From Nitrospirota bacterium (lineage in GTDB: Bacteria > Nitrospirota > Thermodesulfovibrionia > UBA6902): a DNA stretch of 64,000 nucleotides. The notes beneath the pieces are model-generated. The model was not told the origin of the DNA. It saw only the letters and a list, made by a program, of their open reading frames with translations, and made no database searches. Positions 5,207 through 25,622 of the stretch are shown piece after piece. The DNA is taken from positions 421,117 to 485,116 of the forward strand of contig JACQZE010000003.1 of the NCBI GenBank assembly GCA_016207885.1. The letters run 5' to 3'. A program made the translations under genes and the position numbers. Each line of letters starts with the position of its first letter. Within the stretch, counting starts at the first letter, position 1.

Positions 5207-5288
5207 AACACCCGTCATTCCGCGTCCGGACGGTTCATTTATTTACATATTTATCAATGTCCTATGTATAATATTGTCAAATATCATC

Positions 5289-5639: not shown

Positions 5640-5759
5640 GGCCTGATCTCTTTATCCATTAATAATTACCACTCTTCCCATTAGTATCTGTAATTTCTCC
5701 CAAGACTTAAGACCGCAGATATCCCGTTAAATCAATACTACTATTTTGTTTTGTGACTT

Positions 5760-6762
<1,003 letters not shown>

Positions 6763-6829
6763 AAGAAGCGTTCAGCGGTCAGCACTCAGAAATGAACCGC
6801 TTTTACTGATAGCTATAAAGGAGGAAACA

Positions 6830-8257: not shown

Positions 8258-9768
8258 GCACGATAAAGATAAAAGACCACTGCGACCTGTTTCTTGAGCC
8301 GGAGTATCAGGCCCAGTTTGAGCGCAAGAAAGAATTCGAAAACCCATGGCCTGCGGAGAAGGTGAAAGAGGTTTCGGAATGGACCAAGACTGAAGAATAT
8401 AAGGAACTTAACTTTGCAAGGCAGAACATCAAGATCAATCCTGCAAAGGCCTGTCAGCCGCTCGGCGCGGTCTTCTGCGCCTCAGGTTTTGAAGGCTCAA
8501 TGCCCTTTGTGCAGGGCGCTCAGGGCTGCGTGGCGTATTTCAGAAGCCATCTAAGCAGGCACTTTAAAGAACCCTTTGCAGCGATCTCTACATCCATGAC
8601 CGAGGATGCGGCGGTGTTCGGCGGACTGAACAACATGCTTGAAGGGCTGGAGAACACCTATGCCCTTTACAAGCCGAAGATGATCGCGGTCTCGACGACA
8701 TGCATGGCAGAGGTTATCGGCGATGATCTGAACGCCTACATAAAGACAGCGAAAGAAAAAGGCGTAATACCCCAGGACCTGCCTGTGCCGTTTGCTCACA
8801 CACCCAGCTTTGTCGGCTCGCACATCGTTGGCTATGACAATATGCTGAAGGGCATTCTGAAGACGCTTTCAGAAGGCAGGAAAGGCGAGTCGAATAATAA
8901 GGTCAATATCATTATGGGTTTCGACACCTATACCGGAAACTACCACGAGATCAAACGGCTGATGGCGATGATGGGAATTGAATTTACACTGCTGGCGGAT
9001 GTGAGCGAGACCTTTGATTCGCCGAACACAGGTGAATACAAGCTATATCCCGGCGGAACTCCGATTCCCGAAGCCATGGATGCGGTGAATGCTATAGGGA
9101 CTGTCGCGCTGCAGAAGTACTCGACCGTAAAGACAATCGAGTACATTCATAAGGAATGGGGACAGAAAGCCTTTACAGCCGCGCCGATAGGCATCAGGAA
9201 CACAGACACATTCTTTGAAGAGCTAAGCAAGCTCACGGGCAAGCCGGTTCCGGCTGCTATCGAAGCTGAGCGCGGGCGCGCGGTAGATGCCATGGTGGAT
9301 TCGCACCCTTACGTTCACGGCAAACGATTTGCCCTTGTCGGCGACCCTGACATCCTGCTTGGGATGATGAGTCTCATTATGGAGATGGGAGGCGAGCCGG
9401 TGCATATCATCTGCACCAACGGGGACAAGCACTTCGAAGCGGAGGCCAACAAACTGCTCGCGTCAAGCCCATTTGGCGTAAACGGCAAGGTATACATTGG
9501 AAAAGATATGTGGCATATGCGCTCTCTATTATTCACCGAACCGGTTGATATCCTTATCGGAAATTCCTATGCAAAGTTTCTAACACGCGACACCGGGACA
9601 CCGCTTATCAGAATAGGCTTCCCGCTCTTCGACCGGCATCATCTCCACCGGTATCCGGTAATCGGCTATCAGGGAGCGCTGAACCTTGTGACCATGATCG
9701 TCAATAATGTGCTTGATGAGATGGACAGAAAGACGATGGATACAACGAGCTTTGATGTTATCAGGTAG
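8254..9768 (+). CDS. nifK: nitrogenase MoFe protein beta chain
   Basis: [13 protein letters not shown]...[32 protein letters not shown]... The ATG at 8254 is preceded by GGAGGAA. Confidence 0.92.
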
Positions 9769-9771
9769 AGG

Positions 9772-9855
9772 ATAACTCCCCCTTCCCCCTCTTAACCTAA
9801 GAGGGGGGTAAGACTTATTCCTCCCCTTAAGATAAGGGGAGGCGAGGAGGGGTTA
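9772..9855. repeat. composite C/G-rich palindromic element, intergenic copy between nifK and nifEN
   Basis: ataactcccccttcCCCCTCTTAacctAAGAGGGGGG...CCTCCCCTTAAGATAAGGGGAGG. Its first 23 nt are identical to the copy inside nifEN at 10408. Confidence 0.8.
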
Positions 9856-9876
9856 TGAAATAAAAAAGGACCGACA

Positions 9877-12561
9877 ATGTTAACTAACATAGACAAATTA
9901 ACAGAAAGCGGCTGCTCTTCCGAAAAGCAGGACAAGGTATGCCGTTCGCGGGGCGGAGAGTCATGCGCCTTTGACGGAGCTATGATCGTACTCCAGCCTA
10001 TTGCGGATACGGCGCATATCGTCCACGGGCCGATTGCGTGCTGCGGCAACACATGGGAAGGAAGAGGCACGTTATCTTTAAATGGCAACCTGCACAGAAT
10101 GGGCTTCACAACCGACATGAATGAGATAGATATTGTCTATGGCTCTGAGGAAAAATTGTATGCGGCAATAATTAAGACATTTGAAGCTGTAAAACCAAAA
10201 GCTATTTTTGTCTATGCAACATGCGTAAGCGGTTTAATCGGCGAGGATATCGAGTCCGTATGCAAAAAAGCGGAAACCGAAATCGGAGTTCGTGTCATTC
10301 CGGTAAACGCACCGGGCTTTGTCGGCCCGAAGAATTTAGGGAATAGGATAGCAGGGGAAGTGCTGCTGGATCATGTGATAGGGACAGGGGAATTGCCTTC
10401 CAAAATCATAACTCCCCCTTCCCCCTCTTATCTTAAGAGGGGGGCAGACATCAATCTCATCGGAGAGTATAACATCGCAGGAGATTTGTGGCTTGTGGAG
10501 CCGGTGTTAAAAAAAGCTGGAATGCAAATCCTTTCACGCATCACAGGCGATTCGACTTTTGAGGAGATAACTTACGCGCATCATGCAAAGCTGAATGTAG
10601 TGGTTTGCAGCCGCGCATTGATAAATGTTGCGAAGGAGATGGAGAAGCGGTACGGCATTCCTTATATTGAAGTTTCGTTCTTTGGCAAGACAGAGATGAC
10701 AAAGGCCTTGAGGCTGATTGCAAGCAAGCTGTCATCTAATTACAAAATCCCCCTTAATCCCCCTTTTTCAAAGGGGGAGATTGGATTCCCCTCTTTGGAA
10801 AAGAGGGGTCAGGGGAGATTTTTTCAAATAGAGTCAATAATTGCAAGAGAAGAAGAACGTCTTGAAGAAAAACTGAAAATATATTCTCACCTCAAAGGCA
10901 AAAAGGCTGTTCTCTACACCGGCGGGGTGAAGAGCTGGTCATTCATCTCCGCGCTTCTTGATCTGGGAATTGAGATAGTTGCTGTCGGAACAAAGAAGAG
11001 CACATTTGAAGATGAAGAGAAGATGAAAGAGATACTTGGAGAGAATGCTCCGCTTGTTGAAGATGTGATGCCTAAGAATCTCCTGAGGCTCATGAAAGAG
11101 AAAAACGCCGACATACTTGTTGCGGGCGGGAGAAATCAGTATCTCGCGATTAAGGAAGGCTTTCCTTTTGTTGATGTGAATCAGGAGAGGCATACGGCAT
11201 ACGCGGGATATGAAGGGCTGGTGAATTTGGCTGAGCAGATAAGCAACAGCATACGGTTTTATAACCCGAAGGCAAAAGTCGGAAGCCGGAAGTCTGAAGT
11301 AAGAACGAAATCCGAAATTGTTATCAATCCGTTGAAGCACTCACAGTCCATCGGGGCTGCGATCGCGTTTCAGGGGATCAATAATTCAATTCCGGTCATT
11401 CACGGGGCGCAGGGGTGTAACTTCCTTGCAAAGGTTTTATTGACAAAGCATTTCAGAGAGCCCATCGCTCTTCAAAGCACAAAGCTCTTTACCGAGGACG
11501 TGGTGATGGGAAGTGAGGATAAGTTAACCGGCACATTGGACAGCATCATAGACAAGAATGCTCCTGATGTTATCGGAGTTCTGACGTCAGGGCTGTCAGA
11601 GGCAAAGGGAGATGATCTTGAAGGGACATTGAAGGTAAGCGGTCATAGGCCAGGGGTCAGGATTATCCATGTCCCGACTCCTGATTATGAAGGCGGGCTT
11701 GAAAGCGGTTACGCAAGGGCGGTAGAGAACATCATTGAGTCTGTGGTGCCTAAAAATATTGCTGATGCCAGACCCTTGACCGATGACCGTCTTGTCAATG
11801 TCCTTGTCGGCTCGCATCTGACCCCTGCTGATTTTACAGAGTTAAGAGAGATTATTGAAGCCTTCGGCTTAAAGCCGGTCATATTTCCAGACCTTTCCTC
11901 GCTTGACGGCAGCAGGCAGGGCTTTTCACCACTTGCCGCAGGCGGGACAGATGTTAAGGACATAAAAAGAATGGCAGAGGCATCGTTCACAATTGCTATA
12001 GGAAAAAGCATGGAACCGGGCGCGAGGTTGTTGAACGAAATATGCGGCATTGAGTATACGGTGTTTGAAAGCCTTTCCGGGCTCAGGGATGTGGAAGTCT
12101 TCATGCAGATGCTTTCATTCCTGAGCGGCAATCCGGTTCCTGCCAGATACGACAGACAGAGGAGAATCCTGATCGACGGGATGAGGGACGCGCATTTTTA
12201 TTTCGGAAACAAAAAGGTTTGCATCGCGCTTGAGCCTGATATGGCTGTTCAGACTTCAAGATGGATCAGTGAGATGGGCGCGGAGGCAACGCTTGCGGTC
12301 ATTCCTCAGAATACGGAGAGCTCAGGAAATATTATTGCGAAAGAGGTGGTTGTCTCTGACCTGTTTTCGATAGCGGGTGATTATGACCTGCTAATTTCAA
12401 ACTCACACGCTGAAGATACGGCAAAGAGGCTGGGTGTTCCATTGTATCAGGCGGGATTCCCTGTTTATAAAGTTATAGGTAACAGTTCAAGGATCACCAT
12501 TGGATACAGAGGCACGCTTGCGATGATCAATGAAGCGGCAAATCTGCTGCCAAAGGAGTGA
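9877..12561 (+). CDS. nifEN: fused NifE-NifN FeMo-cofactor biosynthesis scaffold
   Basis: 894 aa. The N-terminal half is NifE-like (CAFDGAMIVLQPIADTAHIVHGPIACCGN). The C-terminal half is NifN-like (IGAAIAFQGINNSIPVIHGAQGCNFL). It contains two in-frame repeat insertions. Confidence 0.85.
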   Translation: MLTNIDKLTESGCSSEKQDKVCRSRGGESCAFDGAMIVLQPIADTAHIVHGPIACCGNTWEGRGTLSLNGNLHRMGFTTDMNEIDIVYGSEEKLYAAIIKTFEAVKPKAIFVYATCVSGLIGEDIESVCKKAETEIGVRVIPVNAPGFVGPKNLGNRIAGEVLLDHVIGTGELPSKIITPPSPSYLKRGADINLIGEYNIAGDLWLVEPVLKKAGMQILSRITGDSTFEEITYAHHAKLNVVVCSRALINVAKEMEKRYGIPYIEVSFFGKTEMTKALRLIASKLSSNYKIPLNPPFSKGEIGFPSLEKRGQGRFFQIESIIAREEERLEEKLKIYSHLKGKKAVLYTGGVKSWSFISALLDLGIEIVAVGTKKSTFEDEEKMKEILGENAPLVEDVMPKNLLRLMKEKNADILVAGGRNQYLAIKEGFPFVDVNQERHTAYAGYEGLVNLAEQISNSIRFYNPKAKVGSRKSEVRTKSEIVINPLKHSQSIGAAIAFQGINNSIPVIHGAQGCNFLAKVLLTKHFREPIALQSTKLFTEDVVMGSEDKLTGTLDSIIDKNAPDVIGVLTSGLSEAKGDDLEGTLKVSGHRPGVRIIHVPTPDYEGGLESGYARAVENIIESVVPKNIADARPLTDDRLVNVLVGSHLTPADFTELREIIEAFGLKPVIFPDLSSLDGSRQGFSPLAAGGTDVKDIKRMAEASFTIAIGKSMEPGARLLNEICGIEYTVFESLSGLRDVEVFMQMLSFLSGNPVPARYDRQRRILIDGMRDAHFYFGNKKVCIALEPDMAVQTSRWISEMGAEATLAVIPQNTESSGNIIAKEVVVSDLFSIAGDYDLLISNSHAEDTAKRLGVPLYQAGFPVYKVIGNSSRITIGYRGTLAMINEAANLLPKE
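10408..10448. repeat. palindromic element copy inserted in-frame in nifEN
   Basis: ataactcccccttCCCCCTCTTAtctTAAGAGGGGGGcagac is translated as ITPPSPSYLKRGAD within the NifE domain. Confidence 0.8.
10746..10825. repeat. palindromic element (two hairpins) inserted in-frame in nifEN
   Basis: aatCCCCCttaatCCCCCtttttcaaaGGGGGagattggattCCCCTCTTtggaAAAGAGGGGtcaGGGGagatttttt is translated as KIPLNPPFSKGEIGFPSLEKRGQGRFFQ. Its 3' half is nearly identical to the copy at 41893. Confidence 0.8.
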
Positions 12562-12672
12562 GATGTGAGAAAGTTTAAGAAAGGCATGAAACGTTTGGCT
12601 GTATTCTTGTCAGAGGTCATTTTGGAGACAGCGCGCTATTGCGAAAACAATCAAATATTTTGAGGTGACGTC

Positions 12673-13071
12673 ATGAAAGTGGCATTTGCGACAACAGATG
12701 AAATTAATGTGGATGAACATTTCGGCAGGGCCGGGATGTTTGTCATATACGAATTAATGAAGGATGGTTACAAATTCCTTGAGACGAGAAGGTTCGCTGA
12801 AGGCAGGGATGCGGAGATAGAAGGGACAAAAGGGCTGGGACAGATCCATGATGACAGGGTTCAGGCGAAAGTCGATAAGCTTGCTGATTGCAAGATCATC
12901 TATCTCACGGAAATTGGCGGGCCTTCGGCAGCGAGGCTTGTAAAAAAGGGCATAATGCCGATAAAGATAAAAGAGGCAGCATCTATTGAGGAATCAATGA
13001 ATAGACTATTTGAGACAGTAAAAGGGTCTCCGCCGCCGTGGCTGAGAAAGGCGATGAATAATCATTCGTAG
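12673..13071 (+). CDS. nifX: dinitrogenase FeMo-cofactor-binding (NifX/NafY/NifB-C family) protein
   Basis: MKVAFATTDEINVDEHFGRAGMFVIYEL matches the N-terminal signature of the Nitro_FeMo-Co domain. RBS GAGGTGA. Confidence 0.7.
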   Translation: MKVAFATTDEINVDEHFGRAGMFVIYELMKDGYKFLETRRFAEGRDAEIEGTKGLGQIHDDRVQAKVDKLADCKIIYLTEIGGPSAARLVKKGIMPIKIKEAASIEESMNRLFETVKGSPPPWLRKAMNNHS

Positions 13072-13118
13072 AGGCAGGTTTTAAACTTGCCCCGACAATA
13101 AAAAAGGAGGATTTACAG

Positions 13119-13436
13119 ATGAAGATGATCAGGGCGTTTATAAGGCCGGAAAAAGAGCAGGAGGTAGTTTTGGCATTGGAGGGAGCCGGATTTCCGTCAC
13201 TCACAAAGATGCCGGTATTCGGAAGGGGAAAACAGAAGGGGCTTCAGGTGGGGCCGGTGCATTATGACGAACTTCCCAAAACCCTCATCATGACCGTTGT
13301 TGACACTGAAGATGTCGGGAAAGTGATCGGGATAATAGAGGGCAAGGCAAAGACCGGTTTTATCGGTGACGGGAAGATATTCGTCAGCCCGGTTGATGCT
13401 GTTTACACCGTCAGGACCGGGGAGGCTGTGCTATGA
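13119..13436 (+). CDS. nifI1: nitrogenase-associated PII-like regulator NifI1
   Basis: 105-aa PII-fold ORF (MKMIRAFIRPEK...GRGKQKG...GDGKIFVSPV), paired and overlapping (ATGA) with a longer PII-like ORF. Confidence 0.75.
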   Translation: MKMIRAFIRPEKEQEVVLALEGAGFPSLTKMPVFGRGKQKGLQVGPVHYDELPKTLIMTVVDTEDVGKVIGIIEGKAKTGFIGDGKIFVSPVDAVYTVRTGEAVL

Positions 13437-13849
13437 AGGAGATCACCGCGATCATCAGAAGGGACAAGCTCCCTGAGACCAAAAAGGCGCTTGATGAACT
13501 GGGTTATCCCGCGATGACAATTCAGAGCGTAGACGGGAGAGGAAAACAAAAAGGCGCGATGTGCGCGGAGATGGATTCTGAAATGCCCGAGAGCTTCTGC
13601 ACGGCAGCGAAATTAAAACCGACTCCATCCACATATGCGCTTGAACATACATTGCCGAAGGCCGCCCTCTATGTGCCAAAGAGGATGCTTACTGTTGTTG
13701 TGCCTGATGATGTTGTGATCAAGCTTGTGAAATCAATTATTAAGGTCAACCAGTCAGGCAAGCGCGGAGACGGAAAGATATTTGTTTCGCCCATTGAAGG
13801 CGCTGTCAGGGTAAGGACAGGAGAGATGGACGGCGAGGCGATCTCATAA
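13433..13849 (+). CDS. nifI2: nitrogenase-associated PII-like regulator NifI2 (extended T-loop)
   Basis: 138-aa PII-fold ORF with a long insertion between GRGKQKG and GDGKIFVSPI. Confidence 0.75.
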   Translation: MKEITAIIRRDKLPETKKALDELGYPAMTIQSVDGRGKQKGAMCAEMDSEMPESFCTAAKLKPTPSTYALEHTLPKAALYVPKRMLTVVVPDDVVIKLVKSIIKVNQSGKRGDGKIFVSPIEGAVRVRTGEMDGEAIS

Positions 13850-13859
13850 AGGAGGCATT

Positions 13860-14135
13860 ATGTCAATTACAGGGTACACAAGAGGCGGGCAGGAATGGAC
13901 GCCGAAGTTTATAGAATCCATAGATGCTGACAAGTGCATCGGCTGCGGACGCTGTTACAAGGCCTGCAGCCGGGATGTGCTTGAGCTGATCGAGAAGCCC
14001 TTTGAAGGTGAAGACGAGTACGGAGATGACATGGGCAACAAGGTGATGTCTGTCGCAAATCCAGGGAACTGCATCGGCTGCGAGGCTTGCTCAAAGATCT
14101 GCACAAAGAGATGCCATGTGCATACAGAGGTTTAA
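13860..14135 (+). CDS. 2x[4Fe-4S] ferredoxin
   Basis: Two clusters: CIGCGRCYKACS and CIGCEACSKICT. 91 aa. Confidence 0.75.
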   Translation: MSITGYTRGGQEWTPKFIESIDADKCIGCGRCYKACSRDVLELIEKPFEGEDEYGDDMGNKVMSVANPGNCIGCEACSKICTKRCHVHTEV

Positions 14136-14136
14136 G

Positions 14137-15033
14137 ATGAAAACAATTCTTAAGAGCAGCGACAAAAAACATATCATAAGCACGCACCCGTGTTTCTCTA
14201 AGGAGGCGCACAACAGGTTCGGAAGAATTCATCTGCCTGTAGCGCCTGCCTGCAACATTCAGTGCAAATACTGCGTAAGGAAGTATGACTGCGCCAATGA
14301 ATCAAGGCCCGGCATAACAAGCAGGGTGCTGACCCCGTATGAGGCATTGGAAAGGGTCAGGTCATTGGTTGAACGGAATGAGCGCCTGACCGTTATAGGC
14401 ATTGCAGGGCCGGGAGACCCGCTGGCAAATGACGCGACATTTGAGACATTCAGCGCGATCCACAGGGAATATCCCGAACTGACGCTCTGCGTCTCAACAA
14501 ACGGGCTGCTGCTTTCCGACAGGCTTGATGATCTTATCGGGGCAGGAGTGAGCAGCCTGACGGTTACAATAAATGCTGTCATTCCAGAGATAGCTGAAAA
14601 GATATATTCATGGGTGTCGTACAACGGCAGGCTTTATAAAGAGAGAGAAGCCGCCGAATGCCTTCTGCTGAATCAGTGGGAAGGGCTCGGAGCGGCTGTT
14701 GAGGCTGGGCTTATCGTAAAAGTTAACACGGTTTTTATCCCGGGAGTTAATGACGAAGAGATCCCATTTATCGCCAGGTTTGCCGGCCACAAGGGTGCGG
14801 AACTGATGAATATCATGCCGTTGATCCCAAAAGGTGAGTTTGAAGATCTTCATAGGCCGTCTCGTGAAGCCGTCCATGTAATGCGCGAGAAATGCGGAAA
14901 GCACATTTCGCAAATGACTCATTGCAAACAGTGCCGGGCGGATGCCTGCGGAACTCTTGATGAAGATAAAGATATGGAACTTGAAGTTCTGCATTCGAGG
15001 ATCGGGGAAGATTATTGTGAAATTATTAATTGA
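14137..15033 (+). CDS. nifB: FeMo-cofactor biosynthesis radical-SAM protein NifB (SAM domain only, no NifX-like C-terminal domain)
   Basis: PACNIQCKYCVRKYDC is the CxxxCxxC radical-SAM motif. NifB-like GPGDPLAN and TNGLLL segments are present. The start was trimmed to MKTILK. Confidence 0.8.
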   Translation: MKTILKSSDKKHIISTHPCFSKEAHNRFGRIHLPVAPACNIQCKYCVRKYDCANESRPGITSRVLTPYEALERVRSLVERNERLTVIGIAGPGDPLANDATFETFSAIHREYPELTLCVSTNGLLLSDRLDDLIGAGVSSLTVTINAVIPEIAEKIYSWVSYNGRLYKEREAAECLLLNQWEGLGAAVEAGLIVKVNTVFIPGVNDEEIPFIARFAGHKGAELMNIMPLIPKGEFEDLHRPSREAVHVMREKCGKHISQMTHCKQCRADACGTLDEDKDMELEVLHSRIGEDYCEIIN

Positions 15034-15061
15034 AAGAAGCGGTCAGCTGTCTGAAATAGAA

Positions 15062-15787
15062 ATGGAGCGTTACCGCAGGCAACTGATGCTTCACGGGTTC
15101 ACTGAAGAACATCAGCGTAAGCTGAAGGATTCAACCGCGCTGATAGCGGGCATCGGCGGCCTTGGAGGGACTGCCGCAATATATCTCGCTGTTGCCGGGA
15201 TAGGAAAGATGGTCTTCGCCCATTACGGAAATCTCACGCTCTCCAACATGAACAGGCAGATTCTGATGCGGCATGACCGGATCGGGGGAAGCAGGGTTGA
15301 GCAGGCCATGAGGACAATTGAAGAGATAAATCCCGATGTGGAGGTTGAGGCCTTTAATGAAAGGACATCAGAAGGCAATGTTGGGAATCTTCTCGACGGA
15401 ATTCAGATAGCGCTTTCTGCCAGGCCCAATTTCCGCGAGCGGAGAATCTTAAACAATGCCTGTGTCAGAAGAAATATTCCCATGGTTGAGGCTGCCATGA
15501 ACGGCATGGAGGGGTATCTTTTTAATGTAATTCCCGGAATAACTCCCTGCCTAAATTGCCTGTATCCTGAAGATAACCCGGAGTGGGAAGAGCTTGGTTT
15601 TCCCGTGCTTGGCGCAGTCTCCGGCGTACTCGGCTGCCTGATGAGCATAGAGACGATAAAGCTCCTGACAGGTTATGGGAAACCCCTGCGTTCTCAAATG
15701 CTGGTATTCAATACTATGGATCTGGATTTCAGAAAAATGAATACGAGAAGAGATATCAAGTGCATGGTATGCGGGAATTTGAATTAA
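15062..15787 (+). CDS. hesA: HesA/MoeB/ThiF-family E1-like protein
   Basis: YRRQLMLHGF...LIAGIGGLGGTAAIYLAVAGIGKM is the Rossmann segment, with a C-terminal CLNC...CMVC pair. The start is uncertain (ATG 15062 or GTG 15017). Confidence 0.65.
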   Translation: MERYRRQLMLHGFTEEHQRKLKDSTALIAGIGGLGGTAAIYLAVAGIGKMVFAHYGNLTLSNMNRQILMRHDRIGGSRVEQAMRTIEEINPDVEVEAFNERTSEGNVGNLLDGIQIALSARPNFRERRILNNACVRRNIPMVEAAMNGMEGYLFNVIPGITPCLNCLYPEDNPEWEELGFPVLGAVSGVLGCLMSIETIKLLTGYGKPLRSQMLVFNTMDLDFRKMNTRRDIKCMVCGNLN

Positions 15788-15830
15788 CCTGACAGGGATA
15801 TTAATAAAACAGCAATCACATACTACAACC

Positions 15831-15908
15831 CGTCATTCCGGCTTGTCCGGAATCTTTCTTTGTTTTAAGCAGGATAAGCCTTCGGATTCCCGACAAGCGG
15901 GAATGACA
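15831..15908. repeat. long inverted repeat (23-bp arms, GTCATTCCGG-type) between hesA and nifV
   Basis: cgtcattccggcttgtccggaat ...32 nt... attcccgacaagcgggaatgacag. Related half-sites occur at 5209-5232 and 24136-24147. Confidence 0.6.
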
Positions 15909-15920
15909 GCAATAATAAGG

Positions 15921-17069
15921 ATGAAACTCATGGCAAGAAAAAATAAAATAGAAATTCTCGACACAACCCTGCGGGAGGGAGAACAATCAAGAGGCATTCT
16001 CTTTACCACAGCGCAAAAAATAAAGCTCGCTGAAAAGCTTGACTGCTTCGGAGTGGATTTTATCGAACTGGGGCATCCGGCTGCGTCACCGTCCATACGG
16101 AAGTCTGTTGCCGTAATTTCCTCACTCGGGCTAAAGGCGCAGACAGTTGCCCATGCACGGGCAAAAAAAGAAGATATAGACATTATCCGGAGCTGTAAAA
16201 CAGCATGGGCCGGGATATTTTCCGGTATCAATTCGCTCAGCCTTGACTATCGGCTGCGCTCAGACAGAAAAACGGTTGCCGCCAATATCCTGAATGCCAT
16301 TAAGCATGCGAAAGACTGCGGCCTCAAGGTGCGTTTCACCTGCGAGGATGCTTCAAGGACTGACAGGAAGGAATTAATTGACCTGTACGCAATGGCGGTT
16401 GATGCCGGAGCAGACAGGATATGCGTTGCCGATACTGTCGGGATACTGACTCCGTCAAAGACAAAGGCGTTGATAGCTTATATTAAGAAACACGTCACAG
16501 CAGATATGCATGTCCATCTTCACAATGATTTTGGATTAGCCTCTGCCAATGCGCTTGCAGCTTATGAAGCCGGGGCGAGCGCGATAGATGTTTCTATCAA
16601 CGGCTTGGGAGAACGCTCGGGAGTGGCGGCGCTTGCCGAGGTATGTATGGCGCTCAAGCAGTTGTATACTGTGAATAACATCTGGGATCTGAAGCTGCTG
16701 CCGGAACTTTCAGCAATGGTATCAAGCTTCACAAGGTCGCCCATTGAATATTCACGGCCGATTGTAGGCAGAAATGTATTCTCCCATAAAGGCGGCATCC
16801 ACAGCGCCTCTGTTATGAAAAATCCTGAAACGTATGAACCCTTCCCTCCGGAAATCCTCGGGATAGGCCGCACTATCGTCATCAGCAGATTGATCGGCAG
16901 GCAAGGACTTGAAGGCGTATTGAAACCAGCACGACAGCTCTCACATAAGGATATCGAACATATCATCGGCAGAATCAAAAACAACGGCAATATAGAATTT
17001 ACAGACAAAGATGTAGCCCGTGTGATGAGAAACTTCAAAAGAGAAGACAATGCCCGCATATTGTCATAG
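15921..17069 (+). CDS. nifV: homocitrate synthase (HMGL-like, 2-isopropylmalate synthase family)
   Basis: ILDTTLREGEQS...GVDFIELGHPAA...HLHNDFGLA, in nif context. The start is ambiguous (ATG 15903, 15921 or 15930). Confidence 0.7.
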   Translation: MKLMARKNKIEILDTTLREGEQSRGILFTTAQKIKLAEKLDCFGVDFIELGHPAASPSIRKSVAVISSLGLKAQTVAHARAKKEDIDIIRSCKTAWAGIFSGINSLSLDYRLRSDRKTVAANILNAIKHAKDCGLKVRFTCEDASRTDRKELIDLYAMAVDAGADRICVADTVGILTPSKTKALIAYIKKHVTADMHVHLHNDFGLASANALAAYEAGASAIDVSINGLGERSGVAALAEVCMALKQLYTVNNIWDLKLLPELSAMVSSFTRSPIEYSRPIVGRNVFSHKGGIHSASVMKNPETYEPFPPEILGIGRTIVISRLIGRQGLEGVLKPARQLSHKDIEHIIGRIKNNGNIEFTDKDVARVMRNFKREDNARILS

Positions 17070-17083
17070 CCCACAAAGCTGTC

Positions 17084-17103
17084 CTACAATTACATAATTG
17101 TAG
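17084..17103. promoter_or_regulatory. 20-bp palindrome CTACAATTACATAATTGTAG after nifV, preceded by GCTGTCCTACA motif
   Basis: Near-perfect dyad symmetry. The GCTGTCCTACA motif is shared with the hairpin at 21479. Confidence 0.35.
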
Positions 17104-17146
17104 TTTGATCTAATATGAGAACCTTTTAAATGCAAAGGGTTTGATC

Positions 17147-17164
17147 CTGGCATGCTTTTAGCAT
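17147..17164 (+). promoter_or_regulatory. sigma-54 promoter nearly identical to the nifH promoter
   Basis: cTGGCATgctttTAGCAt versus nifH cTGGCATactttTAGCAt. The -12 GC lies about 15 nt before the annotated ATG. Confidence 0.55.
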
Positions 17165-17176
17165 AATAGATAAGTT

Positions 17177-18667
17177 ATGAATCCGCTTTCCAGTCAGGAA
17201 CTTTATCATGAGATCTTCGGCTCTATCCTTGATAGAACCGAAATGACCCCTTATTTATTGCTGCAGGCAACAAATTATGAGGCCGCCCTGAGACAGGCAA
17301 CCAGGATGATGGGCAACCGCGGTTTTGATACGTCAGACAGCAATGAGCTGAATGAAAGCGAGAAAAAAAGGGCGCAGCAATATATAGAGCAGGCCTATTG
17401 TTACTGTTTTGATTTTATGTTCCCGTTTTTAAAAGAACAGCTTGAAGGGCTCAAGGCTTTAAATACCAAAAATCAGTATCTGTACACTAACTCTTTGCAG
17501 GTCATAGATGAAATAGCGGCTATATTGCTTGATCCGGAGTTTAAAGAAATAGTTGCCGAAGACCCGCGGCATCTCTTTCTTCTGGCATCATCAAAAAAGT
17601 ATCCTCACGTCTTCTACGGCTACAAGGGGCTAAATATGCATGTTCCGCCCGGCTGGCAGCGCATGGCATGTTCGATCCTGAAAGTGGCGCATCTGATCAA
17701 GTCAATCGAGGAGGAGAGCCAGGATGTTAACGACTTCGCCCAGTTGGGCTTGTTCTTTGAAAGTAAGGGGCAGAGCCTTCACGACATATTTAATTATGAC
17801 TGGGAGAACCCCGGAGAACTTCCGGAAAGCGAGGCAGCTCAAAGGGCATTCGTAAAGATCTCTGCTTTTTTTCATAAACTGAAAGAATTTGTTCAATATA
17901 ATACTGAACAAAAGCGCCTGATCTTCAATAGCGGAGACGGGGTTGAAGTCGATATCGTTGAGATAAAGGCAAGGCTGAAGAGCCCGGAAAGCATGTTTAC
18001 CAAGCTGGGCAAGAATCTTGAGGGAGAGGCCTACAATATCAGAGACCTTCTGGCGATCACCTTTATACTGAAGAACAAGGATGATACTTTAAAACTCTTT
18101 CATGCGCTGCAGAAACGGGGCGTTATACTTCAGGAAAATACGATCTCACAGTCCATAACCCAGACATTATTTGATATGCCTGAAGATATGACAGACGCGG
18201 TAGGAAGCCTCATGGCATCTCTCTCTATGAGCAAAGGGAAAGATGAGCCGGATGACAAGGATGAGGTTTTGGTTAACGCAAACAATTTTTATAATGCCCT
18301 CGGGGTCAATACTGCCAATAACCCTTATTCTTCATTGGGCCATAAGAAATTCCAGTGCAAGATAAACTTCTTTGTGCCCATTCACCGGATAGCCGGAACA
18401 GGCAAGATCATTATTCCCGGCACTGCTGAATATAAAATGAGGGACCGGCTTAATTTAAAAACGGAACAGCATACACTTGCGTTAGAGCTTCGCATATCAG
18501 ACGAGAAAAGCTGGCAACGGTCGGAATACAGCGGAGAGTCTCATCACAATGCCTATAAATTCCGTCAGTTGATCTCTGTAATGAACAGGGTATTCAAAAA
18601 TATCTTTAATCTGCCGGAGAAGTCTTTTTCCCAGGTCAGAAGCGACCAGGATATACTCTTCTCATAA
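17177..18667 (+). CDS. RelA/SpoT-like nucleotidyltransferase-domain protein (possible small alarmone synthetase-like) with unknown N-terminal domain
   Basis: The C-terminal half carries an RxKxxxSxxxK motif (ARLKSPESMFTKLGKN), D-containing IRDLLAITFIL, and an ExQxR-like ALELRISDEKSWQRSE...SHHNAYKF segment. Their order matches the NT_RelA_SpoT fold. 496 aa. The start may be an internal Met. Confidence 0.55.
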   Translation: MNPLSSQELYHEIFGSILDRTEMTPYLLLQATNYEAALRQATRMMGNRGFDTSDSNELNESEKKRAQQYIEQAYCYCFDFMFPFLKEQLEGLKALNTKNQYLYTNSLQVIDEIAAILLDPEFKEIVAEDPRHLFLLASSKKYPHVFYGYKGLNMHVPPGWQRMACSILKVAHLIKSIEEESQDVNDFAQLGLFFESKGQSLHDIFNYDWENPGELPESEAAQRAFVKISAFFHKLKEFVQYNTEQKRLIFNSGDGVEVDIVEIKARLKSPESMFTKLGKNLEGEAYNIRDLLAITFILKNKDDTLKLFHALQKRGVILQENTISQSITQTLFDMPEDMTDAVGSLMASLSMSKGKDEPDDKDEVLVNANNFYNALGVNTANNPYSSLGHKKFQCKINFFVPIHRIAGTGKIIIPGTAEYKMRDRLNLKTEQHTLALELRISDEKSWQRSEYSGESHHNAYKFRQLISVMNRVFKNIFNLPEKSFSQVRSDQDILFS

Positions 18668-18778
18668 CATTTTAACTTTCCCTACCAAATTGTCATATAC
18701 CTTCTTTTTTTGTCAGTAAAGATACTTTATTGTAGCTTTAACGCCATAATGTTTCCTTTAAAATCAAAGTGTTATAAA

Positions 18779-18796
18779 CTGGCACGCTTCTCGCAA
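18779..18796 (+). promoter_or_regulatory. sigma-54 promoter (TGGCAC-N5-TCGCA)
   Basis: aCTGGCACgcttcTCGCAa is a strong -24/-12 match. It shares an extended upstream block (CCTTTAAAATCA..GTGTT..AAACTGGCA) with the nifH promoter. Confidence 0.6.
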
Positions 18797-18806
18797 TAAG
18801 CTACGT

Positions 18807-18998
18807 ATGGTTTCACTAAAAAATAAGATAGAGAGCTACGAAAAGAGTTCAATAATTCATGCGCTTGTTGAATGCGACTGGGTGATGGCAAAGGCGGCGA
18901 GACAGTTAGGCATCACTGAGAGGATGATCGGTTACAAGATTAAAAAATACGGAATAAGGAGGGAGGAAGGAAAAGACAGGGTTTCAGGCAGTACATAA
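18807..18998 (+). CDS. stand-alone Fis/NtrC/NifA-type HTH (HTH_8) mini-protein, or remnant of an activator C-terminus
   Basis: IESYEKSSIIHALVECDWVMAKAARQLGITERMIGYKIKKYGI closely matches the C-terminal DNA-binding helix-turn-helix of sigma-54 activators and Fis. The ATG is about 12 nt downstream of the -12 element, so the transcript would be leaderless. Confidence 0.45.
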   Translation: MVSLKNKIESYEKSSIIHALVECDWVMAKAARQLGITERMIGYKIKKYGIRREEGKDRVSGST

Positions 18999-19070
18999 GG
19001 GCACATTGTAATACGCCCGTCAAAAATAAGCGCAGGCGTTAGCCTGCGGCATAAAAATCAGGAGGATAAG

Positions 19071-19777
19071 ATGAAAATTTTCAGAGTTGTTGCAGTAAAA
19101 ATGATTTTACTTGTAATGTTTGCAGGCATCGCTTCTGCCACACCGTCAACACAGATATGGATACCATCGTCCGATATTCAGGCGTTTAAAATATCAAGAC
19201 AGAAAGCCAGGACGGCGTTAACGAAGCGACCGTCACAAATTTAGGTTTGACCGTTGGCGTGCTGCCTTTTGAGAAGGTTCAGGCTGAGGTCGGGGTGGAT
19301 TACAGGGATGCCAACGGTAATCATGAATACCCCCTTCTGTTCAATGTAAAGTTAGGCACACCCGAAGGCGTGTTATTTGAGGGTTCGCCTGCAATAGCGG
19401 TTGGAGGATATGATTTCGGAACAGAGAGCGATGTAAGCGACTATAACCTTGTCTACGGCATTGTGGCAAAGACCTTCGGGCCGGTTGGCAGGATCTCAGC
19501 CGGATATTACACCGGCAACAAAGACCTTTTGCTTGATATAGACGGCAATAAAGATAATACAGGCGTGCTCCTTTCATGGGACAGGACCATCTCTGAAATA
19601 TCGGACAAGCTCTGGGCCGCTGTCGATTATCAGGGAGGAAAGAACGGTTACGGAGCTTTGAGCTTTGGCGCGGCATGGAAATTCGCTCCGAACGTAGGCG
19701 TGATATTCGGTTATGATATTTATAATGAGAGCGTTCTTAAACCGACTGCGACCATACAGTTGGATGTAGACTTTTAA
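19071..19777 (+). pseudogene. small outer-membrane beta-barrel (porin-like) protein, signal peptide and barrel in different frames
   Basis: The ATG at 19071 encodes the signal peptide MKIFRVVAVKMILLVMFAGIASA TPSTQIWIPSSDIQAFK. The barrel ORF (from 19190 in the +2 frame) ends ...IQLDVDF with a C-terminal Phe. A 1-nt indel in the A-run near 19187-19192 would fuse the two frames. Confidence 0.5.
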
Positions 19778-19795
19778 TAGAAGGAGGGAAATGAA

Positions 19796-21103
19796 ATGAA
19801 ACGATTATCAAGTATTTTATTTGCTGCGCTGACACTATTGAGCATCGCGGGTTTTGCCTTTGCAGAAGGGGCTGCGCCCACGGTTGATACCGGCGATACG
19901 TCGTGGATGCTGATCTCAACCGCGCTTGTCATGCTGATGACGCCGGGGCTCGCGTTATTTTACGGCGGCATGGTGAGGCGGAAGAACGTGCTGGGAACGA
20001 TAATGCAGAGCTTTATCGCCCTCGGTGTCGTAACCATTATCTGGGTGCTTTACGGTTACAGCCTGTCGTTCGGGCCGGATGTCGGGCATGTCATAGGCAA
20101 TCTCGACTGGGCCTTCTTAAACGGCGTAGGGCTTGAGCCGAATACGGATTACGCGGCAACGATACCGCATCAGACCTTTATGATATTCCAGATGATGTTC
20201 GCCGTCATCACTCCCGCGCTTATAACAGGAGCGTTTGCCGAGCGGTTCAAGTTCAGCACGTATCTCGTCTTCATTGTGGTATGGGTAACGTTTGTATACT
20301 TCCCGCTTGCTCACTGGGTATGGGGAGTCGGAGGATGGATAAGGAATCTCGGCGCGCTTGATTTCGCAGGCGGCCTGGTAGTTCATATCAGTTCAGGTGT
20401 ATCGGCGCTGGCTGCGGCGATAGTTGTAGGCAAGAGAAAGGGTTACGGCAAGGAAGCGATGATGCCGCATAACGTCACAATGACGCTGCTCGGAGCCGGG
20501 TTATTGTGGTTCGGATGGTTCGGGTTTAACGGTGGAAGCGCGGTCGCGTCAGGAGCTCTTGCGACATCAGCCTTTGTTGTTACGCATATCGCAACGGCAG
20601 CGGCTGCATTATCATGGACGTTTGCTGAATGGAAGCACAGGGGCAAACCGACAGCACTCGGCGCAGCATCAGGCGCGGTTGCCGGGCTTGTCGCGATCAC
20701 CCCGGCCTCAGGTTTTGTCGGGCCTATGTCATCAATAGTTATCGGCCTTGTGGCAGGCGTCTTATGTTACTGGGCGGTAAATCTCAAGACAAAATTCGGC
20801 TACGATGACTCGCTGGATGCGGTGGGAGTTCACGGTGTAGGCGGCACATGGGGCGCGATAGCTACCGGCTTATTCGCTTCAAAGGCGATTAATGCGGCAG
20901 GCAATGACGGCCTGTTTTTTGGAAATTCGTCTCTCATGATGAATCAATTGATAAGCATCGGCGCCTGCTGGGTCTATTCCTTTGTGGCCACATTGATCAT
21001 ATTAAAGATTCTCGATGCAATGATGGGGCTGAGGGTTGACGAAGAGAGCGAAATGGCAGGATTAGACCATGCGCAGCATGGGGAAAGCGGATACACATTA
21101 TAA
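19796..21103 (+). CDS. amt: ammonium transporter
   Basis: 435 aa with an N-terminal signal. Contains the Amt signatures LALFYGGMVRRKN, FAERFKF and DFAGGLVVH. Confidence 0.9.
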   Translation: MKRLSSILFAALTLLSIAGFAFAEGAAPTVDTGDTSWMLISTALVMLMTPGLALFYGGMVRRKNVLGTIMQSFIALGVVTIIWVLYGYSLSFGPDVGHVIGNLDWAFLNGVGLEPNTDYAATIPHQTFMIFQMMFAVITPALITGAFAERFKFSTYLVFIVVWVTFVYFPLAHWVWGVGGWIRNLGALDFAGGLVVHISSGVSALAAAIVVGKRKGYGKEAMMPHNVTMTLLGAGLLWFGWFGFNGGSAVASGALATSAFVVTHIATAAAALSWTFAEWKHRGKPTALGAASGAVAGLVAITPASGFVGPMSSIVIGLVAGVLCYWAVNLKTKFGYDDSLDAVGVHGVGGTWGAIATGLFASKAINAAGNDGLFFGNSSLMMNQLISIGACWVYSFVATLIILKILDAMMGLRVDEESEMAGLDHAQHGESGYTL

Positions 21104-21469
<366 letters not shown>

Positions 21470-21478
21470 CAGGCGATA

Positions 21479-21521
21479 GCTGTCCTACATTTTTGTCGGA
21501 GCTACAAAAATGTAGGACAGC
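21479..21521 (+). terminator. long perfect hairpin after glnK (18-bp stem)
   Basis: GCTGTCCTACATTTTTGT cggagc TACAAAAATGTAGGACAGC, followed by ttgatttgt. Confidence 0.45.
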
Positions 21522-21557
21522 TTGATTTGTAACCCATTAACAATAAAGAGTTTTAAG

Positions 21558-21575
21558 CTGGTACGCTTCTTGATA
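21558..21575 (+). promoter_or_regulatory. degenerate sigma-54-like promoter (TGGTAC-N5-TTGAT)
   Basis: 14 of 17 positions are identical to the promoter at 18779, but the -12 GC is replaced by GA. Weak. Confidence 0.25.
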
Positions 21576-21600
21576 TATAGCATACGCTTATTGGCCTTAA

Positions 21601-23305
<1,705 letters not shown>

Positions 23306-23306
<1 letters not shown>

Positions 23307-23989
23307 TGTCAGTTCTTATCATAAAAAACATAAAGTCTGAGGGCCCCGGAACGATCGAGGGCTTTCTTAAGGCAAAAGGCATGGAATACAGCATTATTGA
23401 CCTGTCCGACTGCAAGGCCGAGATCCCTGACACAAGGGATTATTCCCATCTTGTAGTTATGGGCGGGCCCATGGCTGTATATGAAATGGACGACCATTCA
23501 TTTCTCAGTTATGAAGCCGCGATAATCAGGGCCTTTATTAAAAATGGAAAGCCTGTGCTGGGCATCTGCCTCGGCGCGCAGATGATAGCATACGCGCTTG
23601 GAGCAAGGGTCTACGCCGGCGCGGTAAAAGAGGTCGGATGGCATGAGGCCCGCATAACAGAAGAGGGCATGAAAGATCCCGCATTTGCAGCCCTGTCCGT
23701 AAACGGCGGGCCTTTCGCAGAGGTCTTTCAGTGGCATGGCGACACCTTCGACCTGCCGCAAAAAGCTGTGAGAACGGCCTTTTCAGACAAGTATGAAAAT
23801 CAGTCGTTCAGATACGGAGATAACATCCATGCGCTTCAGTTCCATATAGAGGTCACTCCTGAGATCATCAGGGAATGGTTCGCGGATCAAAAGGGAGAAG
23901 ATATCGACAATATGCTAAGGCATTCAGAGAACGTGTACCCTGAATATCACAAAAGGGCTCTGAAATTTTACGAGAAGTTTTTTGCTTAA
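23306..23989 (+). CDS. class I glutamine amidotransferase (GuaA N-domain-like)
   Basis: GPMAVYE, VLGICLGAQM (nucleophile Cys) and QFHIE (the His/Glu of the catalytic triad). Confidence 0.75.
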
Positions 23990-24000
23990 AGCCTTGTTGT

Positions 24001-24150
24001 TATTCCCCCTTATAAAAGCCAACAGTAGGCGCTTTAAGCGGGGGATACAGGGGGATGTTGAGATAAAACACACCCCCTAACCCCTCTTATTAGAGGGGAT
24101 GATTCCGGTCAAGCCAACAGTAGGCAAGACGAAGCCGCCGGAATGACATA
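24001..24150. repeat. composite palindromic element cluster, intergenic (GATase-glnA)
   Basis: tattCCCCCttataaaagccaacagtaggcgctttaagcGGGGGatacaGGGGGatg ... cacaCCCCCtaaCCCCTCTTATTAGAGGGGatgattccggtcaagccaacagtaggcaag...gccgccggaatgac. Confidence 0.75.
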
Positions 24151-24168
24151 AAAATATTAAACTAAAAC

Positions 24169-24187
24169 TGTCAACTTATAGCTGACA
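24169..24187 (+). promoter_or_regulatory. TGTCA-N9-TGACA palindrome 23 nt upstream of glnA
   Basis: tgtcaacttatagctgaca has perfect 5-bp arms. It resembles, but does not match in spacing, the GlnR/TnrA TGTNA-N7-TNACA box. Confidence 0.35.
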
Positions 24188-24209
24188 ATTAAATCCAAAG
24201 GAGGAAAAA

Positions 24210-25622
24210 ATGACACCAAAAGACGTACTGAAAATGGCTCAGGAGAACAAGGCCGTAATGGCCAACTTCAAGTTCCTTGATTTCCCGGGAATTTGGCAGC
24301 ATTTTGCCGTGCCTGTTGACGAACTCAAGGAGGAAATATTTGAGGAAGGCCTCGGATTCGACGGCTCATCCATCAGGGGATGGCAGGCGATAAACACATC
24401 GGACATGCTCATTATGCCCGATCCGAACACGGCATTCATGGATCCATTCATGAAGTACCCGACGATCAGCCTTATCTGCAACATCGTGGATCCGATTACA
24501 AAGGAGTTCTACACAAGAGACCCGAGATACATCGCGCAGAAGGCAGAGGCGTATCTTAAATCAACCGGCGTGGGAGACACCGCATACTTCGGGCCTGAGG
24601 CTGAGTTCTTCATCTTTGACGGCATAAGGTTCGATCAGAATTCCCACAGCGGCTACTACCATATCGACTCTGTAGAAGGCATCTGGAATTCCGGCAGGGA
24701 GGAGAATCCAAACCTCGGTTACAAACCCAGGCATAAAGAAGGATATTTCCCTGTCCCGCCGACAGACAGCCAGGTTGACATAAGGACAGAGATGGTCATG
24801 GAGATGATCAAGTGCGGCATCTATGTCGAAAGGGAACATCATGAGGTCGCAACAGCAGGACAGGCTGAGATTGACATGAGATTCGATTCGCTTGTCAACA
24901 TGGCTGACAAGAACATGCTCTTTAAATACATAGTCAAAAACGTGGCAAAGCGTAACGGCAAGACAGCGACATTTATGCCAAAGCCATTATTCGGCGACAA
25001 CGGCTCAGGCATGCACGTTCACCAGAGCATATGGAAAGGCGGAAAGCCGCTCTTCGCAGGCAATGGTTATGCCGGCTTAAGCGAGATGGCAATCTACTAC
25101 ATCGGCGGCGTATTGAAGCACGCAAAGTCGCTTGCAGCTCTGACCAATCCGACCACAAATTCATATAAGAGACTGACTCCGGGATTCGAAGCTCCGGTAA
25201 ATCTCGCATACTCAGCGAGAAACCGTTCAGCGTCAATAAGGATACCGACCTACTCGGCAAATCCGAAGGCAAAGAGGGTTGAGGTGAGGTTCCCTGACCC
25301 GTCATGCAACACATACCTCGCCTTTGCAGCTATGCTCATGGCAGGCCTTGACGGGATCGAGAACAAGATCAATCCGGGCGAACCGCTGGATAAGGATCTT
25401 TACGATCTGCCGGCAGAGGAGCTTAAGAACATCCCGCAGATGCCGGGCAGCCTTGACGAGGCGCTTGACGCTCTTGAGAAAGACCACGCATTCCTTCTGA
25501 AAGGCAATGTCTTCACGGAAGACGCCATTTCAAAATGGATAGACTACAAGAGGACAAATGAGGTAGACGCGCTCAGGCTCAGGCCGCATCCGTACGAGTT
25601 CTTCCTGTATTACGATATTTAA
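24210..25622 (+). CDS. glnA: glutamine synthetase type I
   Basis: 470 aa with ...[12 protein letters not shown]...[10 protein letters not shown]...GSGMHVHQS... RBS GGAGGA. Confidence 0.95.

Follow-up and report, generated by a model that had tools for sequence, protein, structure and literature searches.

A stand-alone NifA-type helix-turn-helix gene at the head of an ammonium-transport operon in Thermodesulfovibrionia

What role could be played by a gene that encodes only the DNA-reading head of a transcriptional activator, and that stands first in a nitrogen operon? The question is raised by a Nitrospirota bacterium of the class Thermodesulfovibrionia (GTDB lineage UBA6902), from whose contig JACQZE010000003.1 (GenBank assembly GCA_016207885.1) we have analysed a stretch of 64,000 nucleotides (nt), positions 421,117 to 485,116 of the forward strand, hereafter called the window. 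In it, an open reading frame (ORF) of 63 amino acids (aa), holding a single helix-turn-helix (HTH) domain, begins right behind a sigma-54 promoter and ahead of genes for a porin-like protein, an ammonium transporter (amt) and a P-II protein (glnK). A first-pass annotation, made from the sequence alone, had regarded this ORF as an orphan, either a Fis-like small regulator of the downstream genes or the fossil of a truncated NifA/NtrC gene. The gene, its family and the architecture of the surrounding regulon now stand on solid ground, while the mechanism is offered as a hypothesis: we lean, somewhat beyond an even bet, towards a small regulator induced by nitrogen limitation, which would bind NifA-type palindromes and modulate the NifA/sigma-54 regulon, most likely by competition.

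The small protein and its relatives

The ORF had been read exactly in the first-pass annotation, and its description as an HTH_8 domain without AAA+ or receiver domains also holds. The protein, found in a protein database search as MBI4825241.1 (locus tag HY807_02280), matches Pfam HTH_8 (PF02954, “Fis family”) with 43.1 bits (cut-off 22; E=3.4e-11), its residues 8-48 covering positions 2-42 of the 42 in the profile. No second domain was found by the Pfam scan of the ORF, where the Sigma54_activat AAA+ domain is likewise absent; none was found upstream by tblastn with NifA, and there is no GAFTGA-bearing ORF anywhere in the window. The AlphaFold2 model (mean predicted local distance difference test 85.9) consists of three helices (residues 4-22, 27-34 and 38-48) and a charged, disordered C-terminal tail, and has neither a “helix A” nor an N-terminal arm. 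It superposes at 1.1-1.2 Å on the DNA-binding domains of Aquifex activators (2m8g, NtrC4 and NtrC1) and on helices B-D of Fis. The best sequence matches in the PDB are 2m8g, an Aquifex activator DNA-binding domain (1.9e-11), and the NifA structure 9qq6 (2.1e-9). The Aquifex aeolicus domains (2m8g; NtrC1, 4l5e; NtrC4, 3e7l/4fth) are the closest solved structures, 2m8g with 47% identity and a root-mean-square deviation of 1.1 Å; they differ from the small protein in being parts of full-length activators, and NtrC4 has in addition a dimerising helix A that the small protein lacks.

This ORF is far from being an orphan. A search of 5.8 billion proteins retrieved 733 homologues, of which the best 120 are all 57-86 aa long and contain HTH_8 only, and whose named sources are Nitrospirae, Thermodesulfovibrionia or Dissulfurispira. 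A HMMER scan of 1.84 billion cluster representatives gave 62 clusters (at 50% identity) with E<=1e-10, all of 47-106 aa with one exception, a repeat protein of 2580 aa, and full-length activators first appear at E values of about 1e-7 to 1e-8. Orthologues of 57-90 aa, confirmed by tblastn, are encoded in at least 251 species-representative genome stretches, almost all of them from Nitrospirota/Thermodesulfovibrionia. Databases label these proteins as “hypothetical protein”, “helix-turn-helix domain-containing protein” or, wrongly, “Nif-specific regulatory protein”, and a full-text literature search found no publication on the family or on nitrogen regulation in Thermodesulfovibrionia.

An alignment of 32 members has 22 invariant columns, among them L4, E12, W25, A-x-AAR, the stretch GITERMIGYKIKKYGI and the recognition helix G-I-T-E-R-M-I-x-Y-K. 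None of the 22 invariant residues is missing from the window protein, which shares 59-86% identity with the other 31 members and displays the hallmarks of the family: a length of 57-90 aa, the N-terminus M-x-S/T-L-K/R, W25, AKAAR and GITERMIGYKIKKYGI. The conserved N-terminus falls exactly on the start codon. Across 78 gene copies, synonymous differences are saturated (mean proportion 0.81) and non-synonymous ones amount to 0.15, with a median ratio of non-synonymous to synonymous substitution rates (dN/dS) of 0.11 for the unsaturated pairs. The size of the family, its invariant columns and this ratio indicate strong purifying selection on a translated gene. Judged by its sequence, the ORF is thus a functional gene for a small protein that would bind DNA.

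Two peculiarities of individual members can be mentioned here (genomic loci are designated by L numbers). A subgroup (L015, L016, L018, L024, L026, L040, L042, L046, L050, L056, L058, L061, L067, L074, L077, L081, L083 and L084) has a conserved C-terminal tail, R[IV]KEVRW[IV]E[DE], which is missing from the window protein and could be an interaction motif. At L008 (275-1306) the HTH frame runs on into the porin-like gene as an ORF of 343-351 aa, either a fusion or an assembly frameshift.

Which activator did this HTH come from? Among 18,950 NCBIfam models the best match is NifA (TIGR01817, positions 489-530 of 534, E=6e-10, 38.5 bits), followed by DhaR at 1e-4; there is no Fis family among the NCBIfam matches. 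The small protein shares with the C-terminal domain of NifA (PDB 9qq6; the domain of G. diazotrophicus, PMC10590331) the same three-helix HTH_8 fold. It is also 55% identical over 49 aa to residues 455-503 of a 507-aa NifA from the same genome (MBI4825219.1, here P0271), which is 91% identical to the L047 protein used as query and passes the NifA equivalog cut-off with 573.5 bits against 528.85. P0271 comes from a contig of 514,766 bp, exactly as long as that of the window, and its accession is 22 below that of the small protein, which would place it on the same contig, about 22 genes away and a few genes past the left end of the window. The small gene directly follows a full-length NifA gene (GAF-AAA+-HTH_8) in L033, L045 and L070; in L047 such a gene is found about 3.5 kb before it. 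In 18 NifA proteins of Nitrospirota the HTH reads ...GWVQAKAARLLGIT[P/S]RQIGYK[I/M]KKYG..., and in the small family ...DWVMAKAARxLGITERMIGYKIKKYG..., with the lineage-specific residues IGYKIKKYG common to both. By this resemblance, the small protein and the C-terminal HTH domain of Nitrospirota NifA are paralogues, the former standing alone. The small protein is, however, neither NifA nor any enhancer-binding protein, lacking both GAF and AAA+ domains: of the architecture that goes with more than 528.85 bits in the equivalog model (GAF, GAFTGA-bearing AAA+ and HTH_8), the 63-aa protein retains just the last part. We also considered a split activator, composed of a NifA without DNA-binding domain and a separate one, and rejected it, as every NifA seen, including P0271, has its own HTH_8.

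The description as “Fis-like” is apt for a stand-alone HTH_8 that descends from the DNA-binding domain of an enhancer-binding protein and whose model fits Fis helices B-D, but is otherwise imprecise. The small protein is not Fis, from which it differs in lacking the N-terminal arm, with its beta-hairpin, and helix A, and with which it shares about 21% identity (16-25% in alignments of 47-52 columns). It has 63 aa instead of 98, its HTH is of the NifA and not the NtrC type, it belongs to a different phylum, and its gene is transcribed from a sigma-54 promoter in a nitrogen operon, whereas Fis has a growth-phase sigma-70 promoter. Fis itself has been proposed, reportedly by Morett and Bork in 1998, to derive from the DNA-binding domain of NtrC. 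The small family would then be an independent origin parallel to Fis, out of NifA, which stayed within the nitrogen regulon.

The control region and the regulon

The sigma-54 element ahead of the ORF (TGGCACGCTTCTCGCA, 18780-18795) has its -12 GC at 18793-94 and ends 11 nt before the ATG. Its pattern alone is no better than chance, with two matches (up to one mismatch) in the window against 2.4 expected, and therefore the reality of the promoter was judged on its conservation across genomes. A GG-N10-GC element (at least 8 of 11 consensus positions) lies no more than 57 nt upstream of the start codon in 56 of 75 orthologues, compared with 7.5% of random 200-nt windows from the same loci, and most of the remaining orthologues have the variants TGGCAY-N5-TNGAT or TNGTA. 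As a side observation, non-canonical -12 elements (TNGAT or TGGTA instead of TTGCW) occur at the HTH promoters of L015, L016, L018, L035, L040, L042, L046, L050, L067 and L083, and also at 21559-21574 in the window, where the internal glnK promoter has TGGTAC at -24.

Further upstream, the conserved design has two more parts. When promoters are aligned on the -24 element, the consensus ttt..tT..AAAtCAA..agtTa....C immediately precedes TGGCA; within it, the position of WATCAR relative to the T of TGGCA is constant (-18/-17) in 46 of 70 orthologous promoters, and the strict WATCAANNNNTTR box is present in 29 of the 70. The protein binding this IHF-like box would be IHF. Beyond it, ACA-N4-TGT palindromes (CTACAAAATTGTAG, consensus cTACAAAATTGTAgc), with the TGT/ACA half-sites of the NifA type, are found in all 74 orthologous promoters, two in 53 and three in 21 of them, centred 60-95 nt upstream of the T of -24 and mostly 18-19 bp apart. 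The window promoter has units at 18684, 18704 and 18724, a 20-bp spacing, the middle one being degenerate and ending in TGT at 18711-18713. With its -24 GG and -12 GC 10 nt apart, and its upstream sites separated from them by an IHF-like box, the control region looks by sequence like a typical enhancer-dependent sigma-54 promoter of a nitrogen regulon, and the promoter proposed in the first-pass annotation is in this way borne out.

The same annotation had the transcript start on the ATG, without a leader. Its arithmetic is right, since the predicted start coincides with the A of the ATG or precedes it by one base, and the 11-nt gap of the window has no Shine-Dalgarno site. The family as a whole is different: the usual gap between the 16-mer and the start codon is 23-26 nt, with GAGGTGA beginning at the predicted 5′ end, which gives a leader of 12-15 nt with a Shine-Dalgarno site, and only a minority of the promoters have gaps of 11-18 nt. 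Gaps of 11 nt up to the conserved MVSLK start are also found in L085 and L086, with proteins 84% and 87% identical, and L087 has 13 nt. The three short-gap sequences (ataagctacgt, atgaattgttt and gtaagatgttc) differ, so that the length of the gap is kept without its sequence, as a transcription start on the AUG predicts. A leaderless or nearly leaderless sigma-54 mRNA is therefore a plausible prediction for the window and its nearest relatives, and is not a trait of the family.

The linkage to the downstream genes turned out to be general. The window proteins were compared by tblastn with 82 non-redundant loci; 75 of these loci are assessable, the other seven having a contig end within 2 kb. 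The small gene heads a (porin)-amt-glnK(-glnA) cluster in 68 of the 75 assessable loci, with which the window layout agrees: amt lies within 7 kb downstream in these 68 loci and within 2 kb in 58, a porin-like gene is directly adjacent in 56, glnK follows in 55 and glnA in 20. The search for stand-alone HTH_8 genes ahead of amt in relatives, which the first-pass annotation had proposed, is answered by these counts. In 25 loci there are nif genes upstream (nifEN, two P-II-like genes that are probably nifI1/nifI2, nifB, a thiF-like gene and nifV). L055 has two copies of the small gene, one at the head of each sub-operon; in L082 and L049 it is followed by (GATase-)glnA, and in L083 by an amino-acid permease gene. 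A paralogue in L019 (7995-8171) comes directly after kdpB and kdpC, without a sigma-54 promoter and with a gene for a DHH-CBS-polyA-polymerase-type protein next to it.

A scan of all loci and the whole window for the complete design (palindromes, IHF-like box and sigma-54 element) yielded 112 promoters, every one on the strand of the small gene. The gene downstream is the small HTH gene in 71 cases, nifB in six, amt in six, glnK in five, a gene for a 496-aa protein in two and nifH in one; 19 precede other genes and two have no ORF called downstream. Exactly four are in the window, at nifH (5835), the 496-aa gene (17148), the small gene (18780) and a second glnK (21559). The small gene hence sits behind the promoter design of nifH and nifB, the presumed NifA regulon, which is a further difference from NifA itself. 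The spacing of the units varies with the promoter class: 20 bp in seven of the eight intervals available at nifH and nifB, 18-19 bp in 61 of about 93 intervals at HTH promoters, and, where the promoter is an internal one of glnK, 17-19 bp. With 20 bp between units, the canonical NifA site TGT-N10-ACA arises between them, and the three units at nifH form two such sites.

Some details of these other promoters are given for completeness. The nifB promoters compared for spacing are those of L030, L031, L041, L065 and L074, and the internal amt promoters have a single extended palindrome, such as GGAAATCCTACAAAATTGTAGGATTTCC. The 496-aa gene (17177-18667; also in L055, L064 and L068) matches TIGR04552 with 85.7 bits, below the cut-off of 125, and weakly a RelA_SpoT nucleotidyltransferase; its product appears to be a nitrogen-regulated enzyme. 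The second match to a TGGCAC-N5-TTGCW-like pattern in the window, TGGCACATACTTGGCA at 28685-28700 (+), lies inside a minus-strand ORF of a restriction/defence-type cluster, has neither palindromes nor an IHF-like box, and is probably due to chance.

Possible modes of action

In the mechanism that we favour, the small gene would be the first in an operon that serves under nitrogen limitation (HTH, porin-like gene, amt and glnK) and is transcribed from a sigma-54 promoter activated at the tandem palindromes, with an IHF-like bend site in between. These palindromes would be the binding sites of a NifA-type activator, as suggested by their enhancer distance, by the TGT-N10-ACA sites that result at nifH and nifB, and by the linkage of the activator gene to the regulon. 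Since nifH, nifB, the second glnK-amt genes and the 496-aa gene share the control region, the small protein would be made only when this activator is active. With no GAF sensor and no AAA+ motor it could not activate sigma-54, and its activity, in a protein without an obvious ligand site, would be set by its abundance. It would bind the NifA-type palindromes or a close variant of them and, unable to contact sigma-54 from there, would compete with NifA or reshape its binding; as its own synthesis would depend on NifA activity, the outcome would be a negative feedback loop. In a more ambitious version, which we consider less likely than not, the DNA-binding domain of NifA would have been duplicated into a protein of its own that NifA induces and that occupies or reshapes the enhancer sites, thereby exerting feedback on nif, amt, glnK and glnA; it would be a domain-only decoy and a second origin of the Fis type.

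Several points weigh against competition for NifA sites. Three differences in or next to the recognition helix are invariant between NifA and the small family (WVQ to WVM, TP/S-R to TER and RQI to RMI, that is, Q to M, P/S to E and Q to M), because of which the DNA specificity of the small family may differ from that of NifA. That NifA is the protein bound at the palindromes is itself something we infer. Specific binding of a NifA site by an isolated NifA DNA-binding domain is on record and speaks for the model, but this domain binds as a monomer (Kd about 20 uM), and NifA-type domains without “helix A” do not dimerise off DNA (PMC10590331); by analogy, the small protein, having no helix A, is expected to be monomeric and to bind weakly, and effective competition would then need high protein levels, while a leaderless or minimal-leader first cistron suggests modest translation. 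At nifA, a palindrome operator overlapping a sigma-70-like promoter was found in two of seven loci (L047 and L070) and is absent in L033, L045, L088, L089 and L090. Neither is there a conserved autorepression site at the HTH promoter, where sporadic half-sites downstream of -12 occur only in L054, L070 and L061/L081.

Part of this evidence would suit a regulator in a Nac-like cascade, which would read a DNA motif of its own at other promoters, for example sigma-70 promoters of genes of the nitrogen-rich state, instead of NifA sites, and would thereby tie these genes to the nitrogen status. The three substitutions, with a glutamate at position 2 of the recognition helix, are typical of changed specificity, the L019 paralogue has a non-nitrogen context, and the minimal leader suggests the low expression of a regulator. 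Even so we find this role doubtful, as the promoters examined within the loci revealed no further conserved motif and the HTH is nearly identical to that of NifA outside the three positions, for instance in IGYKIKKYG.

The spacing of the palindromes has been mentioned as varying with promoter class, which together with the position of the small gene at the head of assimilation operons and not of nif operons, and with the DNA bending by Fis-type folds, would fit a positive co-factor or architectural partner of NifA. By adjacent or joint binding, or in mixed dimers with the DNA-binding domain of NifA, it would help the activator to assemble at assimilation promoters, with their units 17-19 bp apart, in a positive feed-forward manner. 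Such a partnership is unlikely: promoters of this design at internal amt and glnK genes function with no HTH gene next to them, the HTH promoter of the window has itself the 20-bp spacing, the nif value comes from only eight intervals, and the protein shows no sign of a contact surface for NifA. Still more improbable is a protein-binding adaptor for GlnK/P-II, NifA or sigma-54, with DNA binding as a secondary property and a logic like that of PipX or SciP; the constant co-localisation with glnK and amt and the conserved tail R[IV]KEVRWIE of one subgroup speak for it, but the best-conserved residues are those of the HTH and its recognition helix, and the tail is disordered and varies between family members.

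A decayed NifA/NtrC remnant or a chance ORF, for which one can argue only that the ORF corresponds to the final domain of enhancer-binding proteins, can be dismissed: the DNA upstream is a conserved promoter, preceded by the 496-aa gene and the promoter of the latter; the motif M-x-S/T-L-K is kept right at the start codon; orthologues of this length number in the hundreds; dN/dS is about 0.11; an intact NifA is encoded in the same genome; and the relationship is of the NifA type. The decayed AAA+ coding that such a fossil might have left was sought with the NifA of the genome itself: P0271 run by tblastn against the whole window (word size 2, E<=10) matches only the HTH at 18810-18956, with no GAF or AAA+ similarity in 17000-18806.

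The neighbourhood and its biological meaning

The coordinates of the gene, its control region and the related features of the window are collected in Table 1.

Table 1. Position of the small HTH gene, its promoter and associated elements in the window
Feature	Position	Strand	Remarks
nifH promoter	5738..5850	+	three ACA-N4-TGT units 20 bp apart, then AATCAGtgtgTTG, TGGCATactttTAGCA
Promoter of the 496-aa gene (TTACATAATTGTAG ... TGGCATgctttTAGCA)	17090..17163	+	13-nt gap to the ATG at 17177
Upstream activator region	18682..18735	+	CTACCAAATTGTCA at 18682-18695 and ATACTTTATTGTAG at 18722-18735, each one mismatch from ACA-N4-TGT
IHF-like box AATCAAAGTGTTA (WATCAANNNNTTR)	18762..18774	+	0 mismatches; directly upstream of the -24 element
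Sigma-54 -24/-12 element TGGCACgcttcTCGCA	18780..18795	+	one mismatch to TGGCAC-N5-TTGCW; conserved in orthologous loci
Predicted transcription start	18806..18807	+	12 nt after the C of the -12 GC, standard sigma-54 geometry; leaderless or 1-nt leader
Stand-alone NifA-type HTH_8 gene, 63 aa	18807..18998	+	ATG start; ORF, Pfam, family and structure evidence
Short GC-rich hairpin CGCAGGCGTTAGCCTGCG	19031..19048	+	between the HTH gene and the next gene
Porin-like beta-barrel gene, frameshifted	19071..19777	+	57-aa signal-peptide ORF and 176-aa ORF
amt, ammonium transporter	19796..21103	+	Ammonium_transp E=4.9e-139; co-oriented, downstream
glnK (P-II)	21122..21469	+	P-II E=1.7e-31; last gene before the next internal sigma-54 promoter
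Internal promoter of the second glnK-amt-GATase genes	21485..21574	+	CTACATTTTTGTCG, CTACAAAAATGTAG, then TGGTACgcttcTTGAT

The gap between the small gene and the next one is short, and the latter has a strong Shine-Dalgarno site. No T-run follows the hairpin of this gap on the plus strand, and no intrinsic terminator is thus present there on the coding strand. In L002, L035, L036, L052, L085, L087 and others, a short hairpin (...GCAGGnnTTAGCCTGC...) recurs in the interval from the HTH stop codon to the next Shine-Dalgarno site. Such an intergenic GC-rich hairpin could be a processing or stability element; there was no Rfam match at E<=1 in 16900-24300. The porin-like gene has in the window and in L047 (8247-8947) about nine codons fewer than the intact 243-aa homologue of L064, with the frame change at the identical point. 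The disrupted gene, with its ORFs of 55-57 and 176 aa, can be read as a pseudogene common to both or as a split gene of an unusual kind.

The closely related L047 differs from the window in another respect. The nif cluster and the 496-aa gene, present in the window at 5207-18753, are missing at the syntenic place of L047 (6686-7945), from which nifHDK, nifEN, the two P-II-like genes (probably nifI1/nifI2), a ferredoxin gene, nifB, the thiF-like gene and nifV are absent. L047 still encodes NifA and the small HTH protein and has the amt-glnK-glnA cluster, and nucleotide homology restarts 27 nt upstream of the -24 element. In the window there is also an inverted repeat, TGTCAacttatagcTGACA, at 24150-24185, about 40 nt upstream of glnA, without a sigma-54 promoter or ACA-N4-TGT units.

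Small regulators that are produced under the control of a master activator have precedents in other bacteria. Nac of Klebsiella and E. coli has no co-effector, its gene is transcribed from a sigma-54 promoter that depends on an activator, and its amount reports nitrogen limitation. The likeness to the small protein is one of regulatory logic only, as Nac is a LysR-type protein of 305 aa with unrelated sequence. SciP of Caulobacter is a small HTH protein that is induced by a master activator and then represses part of the regulon. An Xre-family regulator of Cereibacter sphaeroides is reported to be transcribed from a sigma-54 (RpoN3) promoter together with the activator that belongs to it (PMC11999139). 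It would likewise repress part of a regulon. SciP and the Xre regulator belong to unrelated HTH families, and neither is paralogous to the DNA-binding domain of its own activator.

Thermodesulfovibrionia are widespread subsurface sulfate reducers and diazotrophs, whose nitrogen control has apparently not been studied by experiment. For this class, the comparison provides a model of the regulon, with a NifA-type activator, a 14-bp palindrome CTACA-N4-TGTAG, an IHF-like box, and sigma-54 promoters at nifH, nifB, amt, glnK and two unknown genes. A leaderless sigma-54 transcript would be, if true, an unusual pairing of promoter type and translation mode, and the small protein would offer a compact, orthogonal DNA-binding part for synthetic nif control. 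Above all, the regulon has a previously uncharacterised component that is found across the class, a protein of some 60 aa that is only the DNA-reading head of the activator; if this protein were a decoy or a partner of NifA, it would represent a new way of tuning enhancer-dependent transcription.

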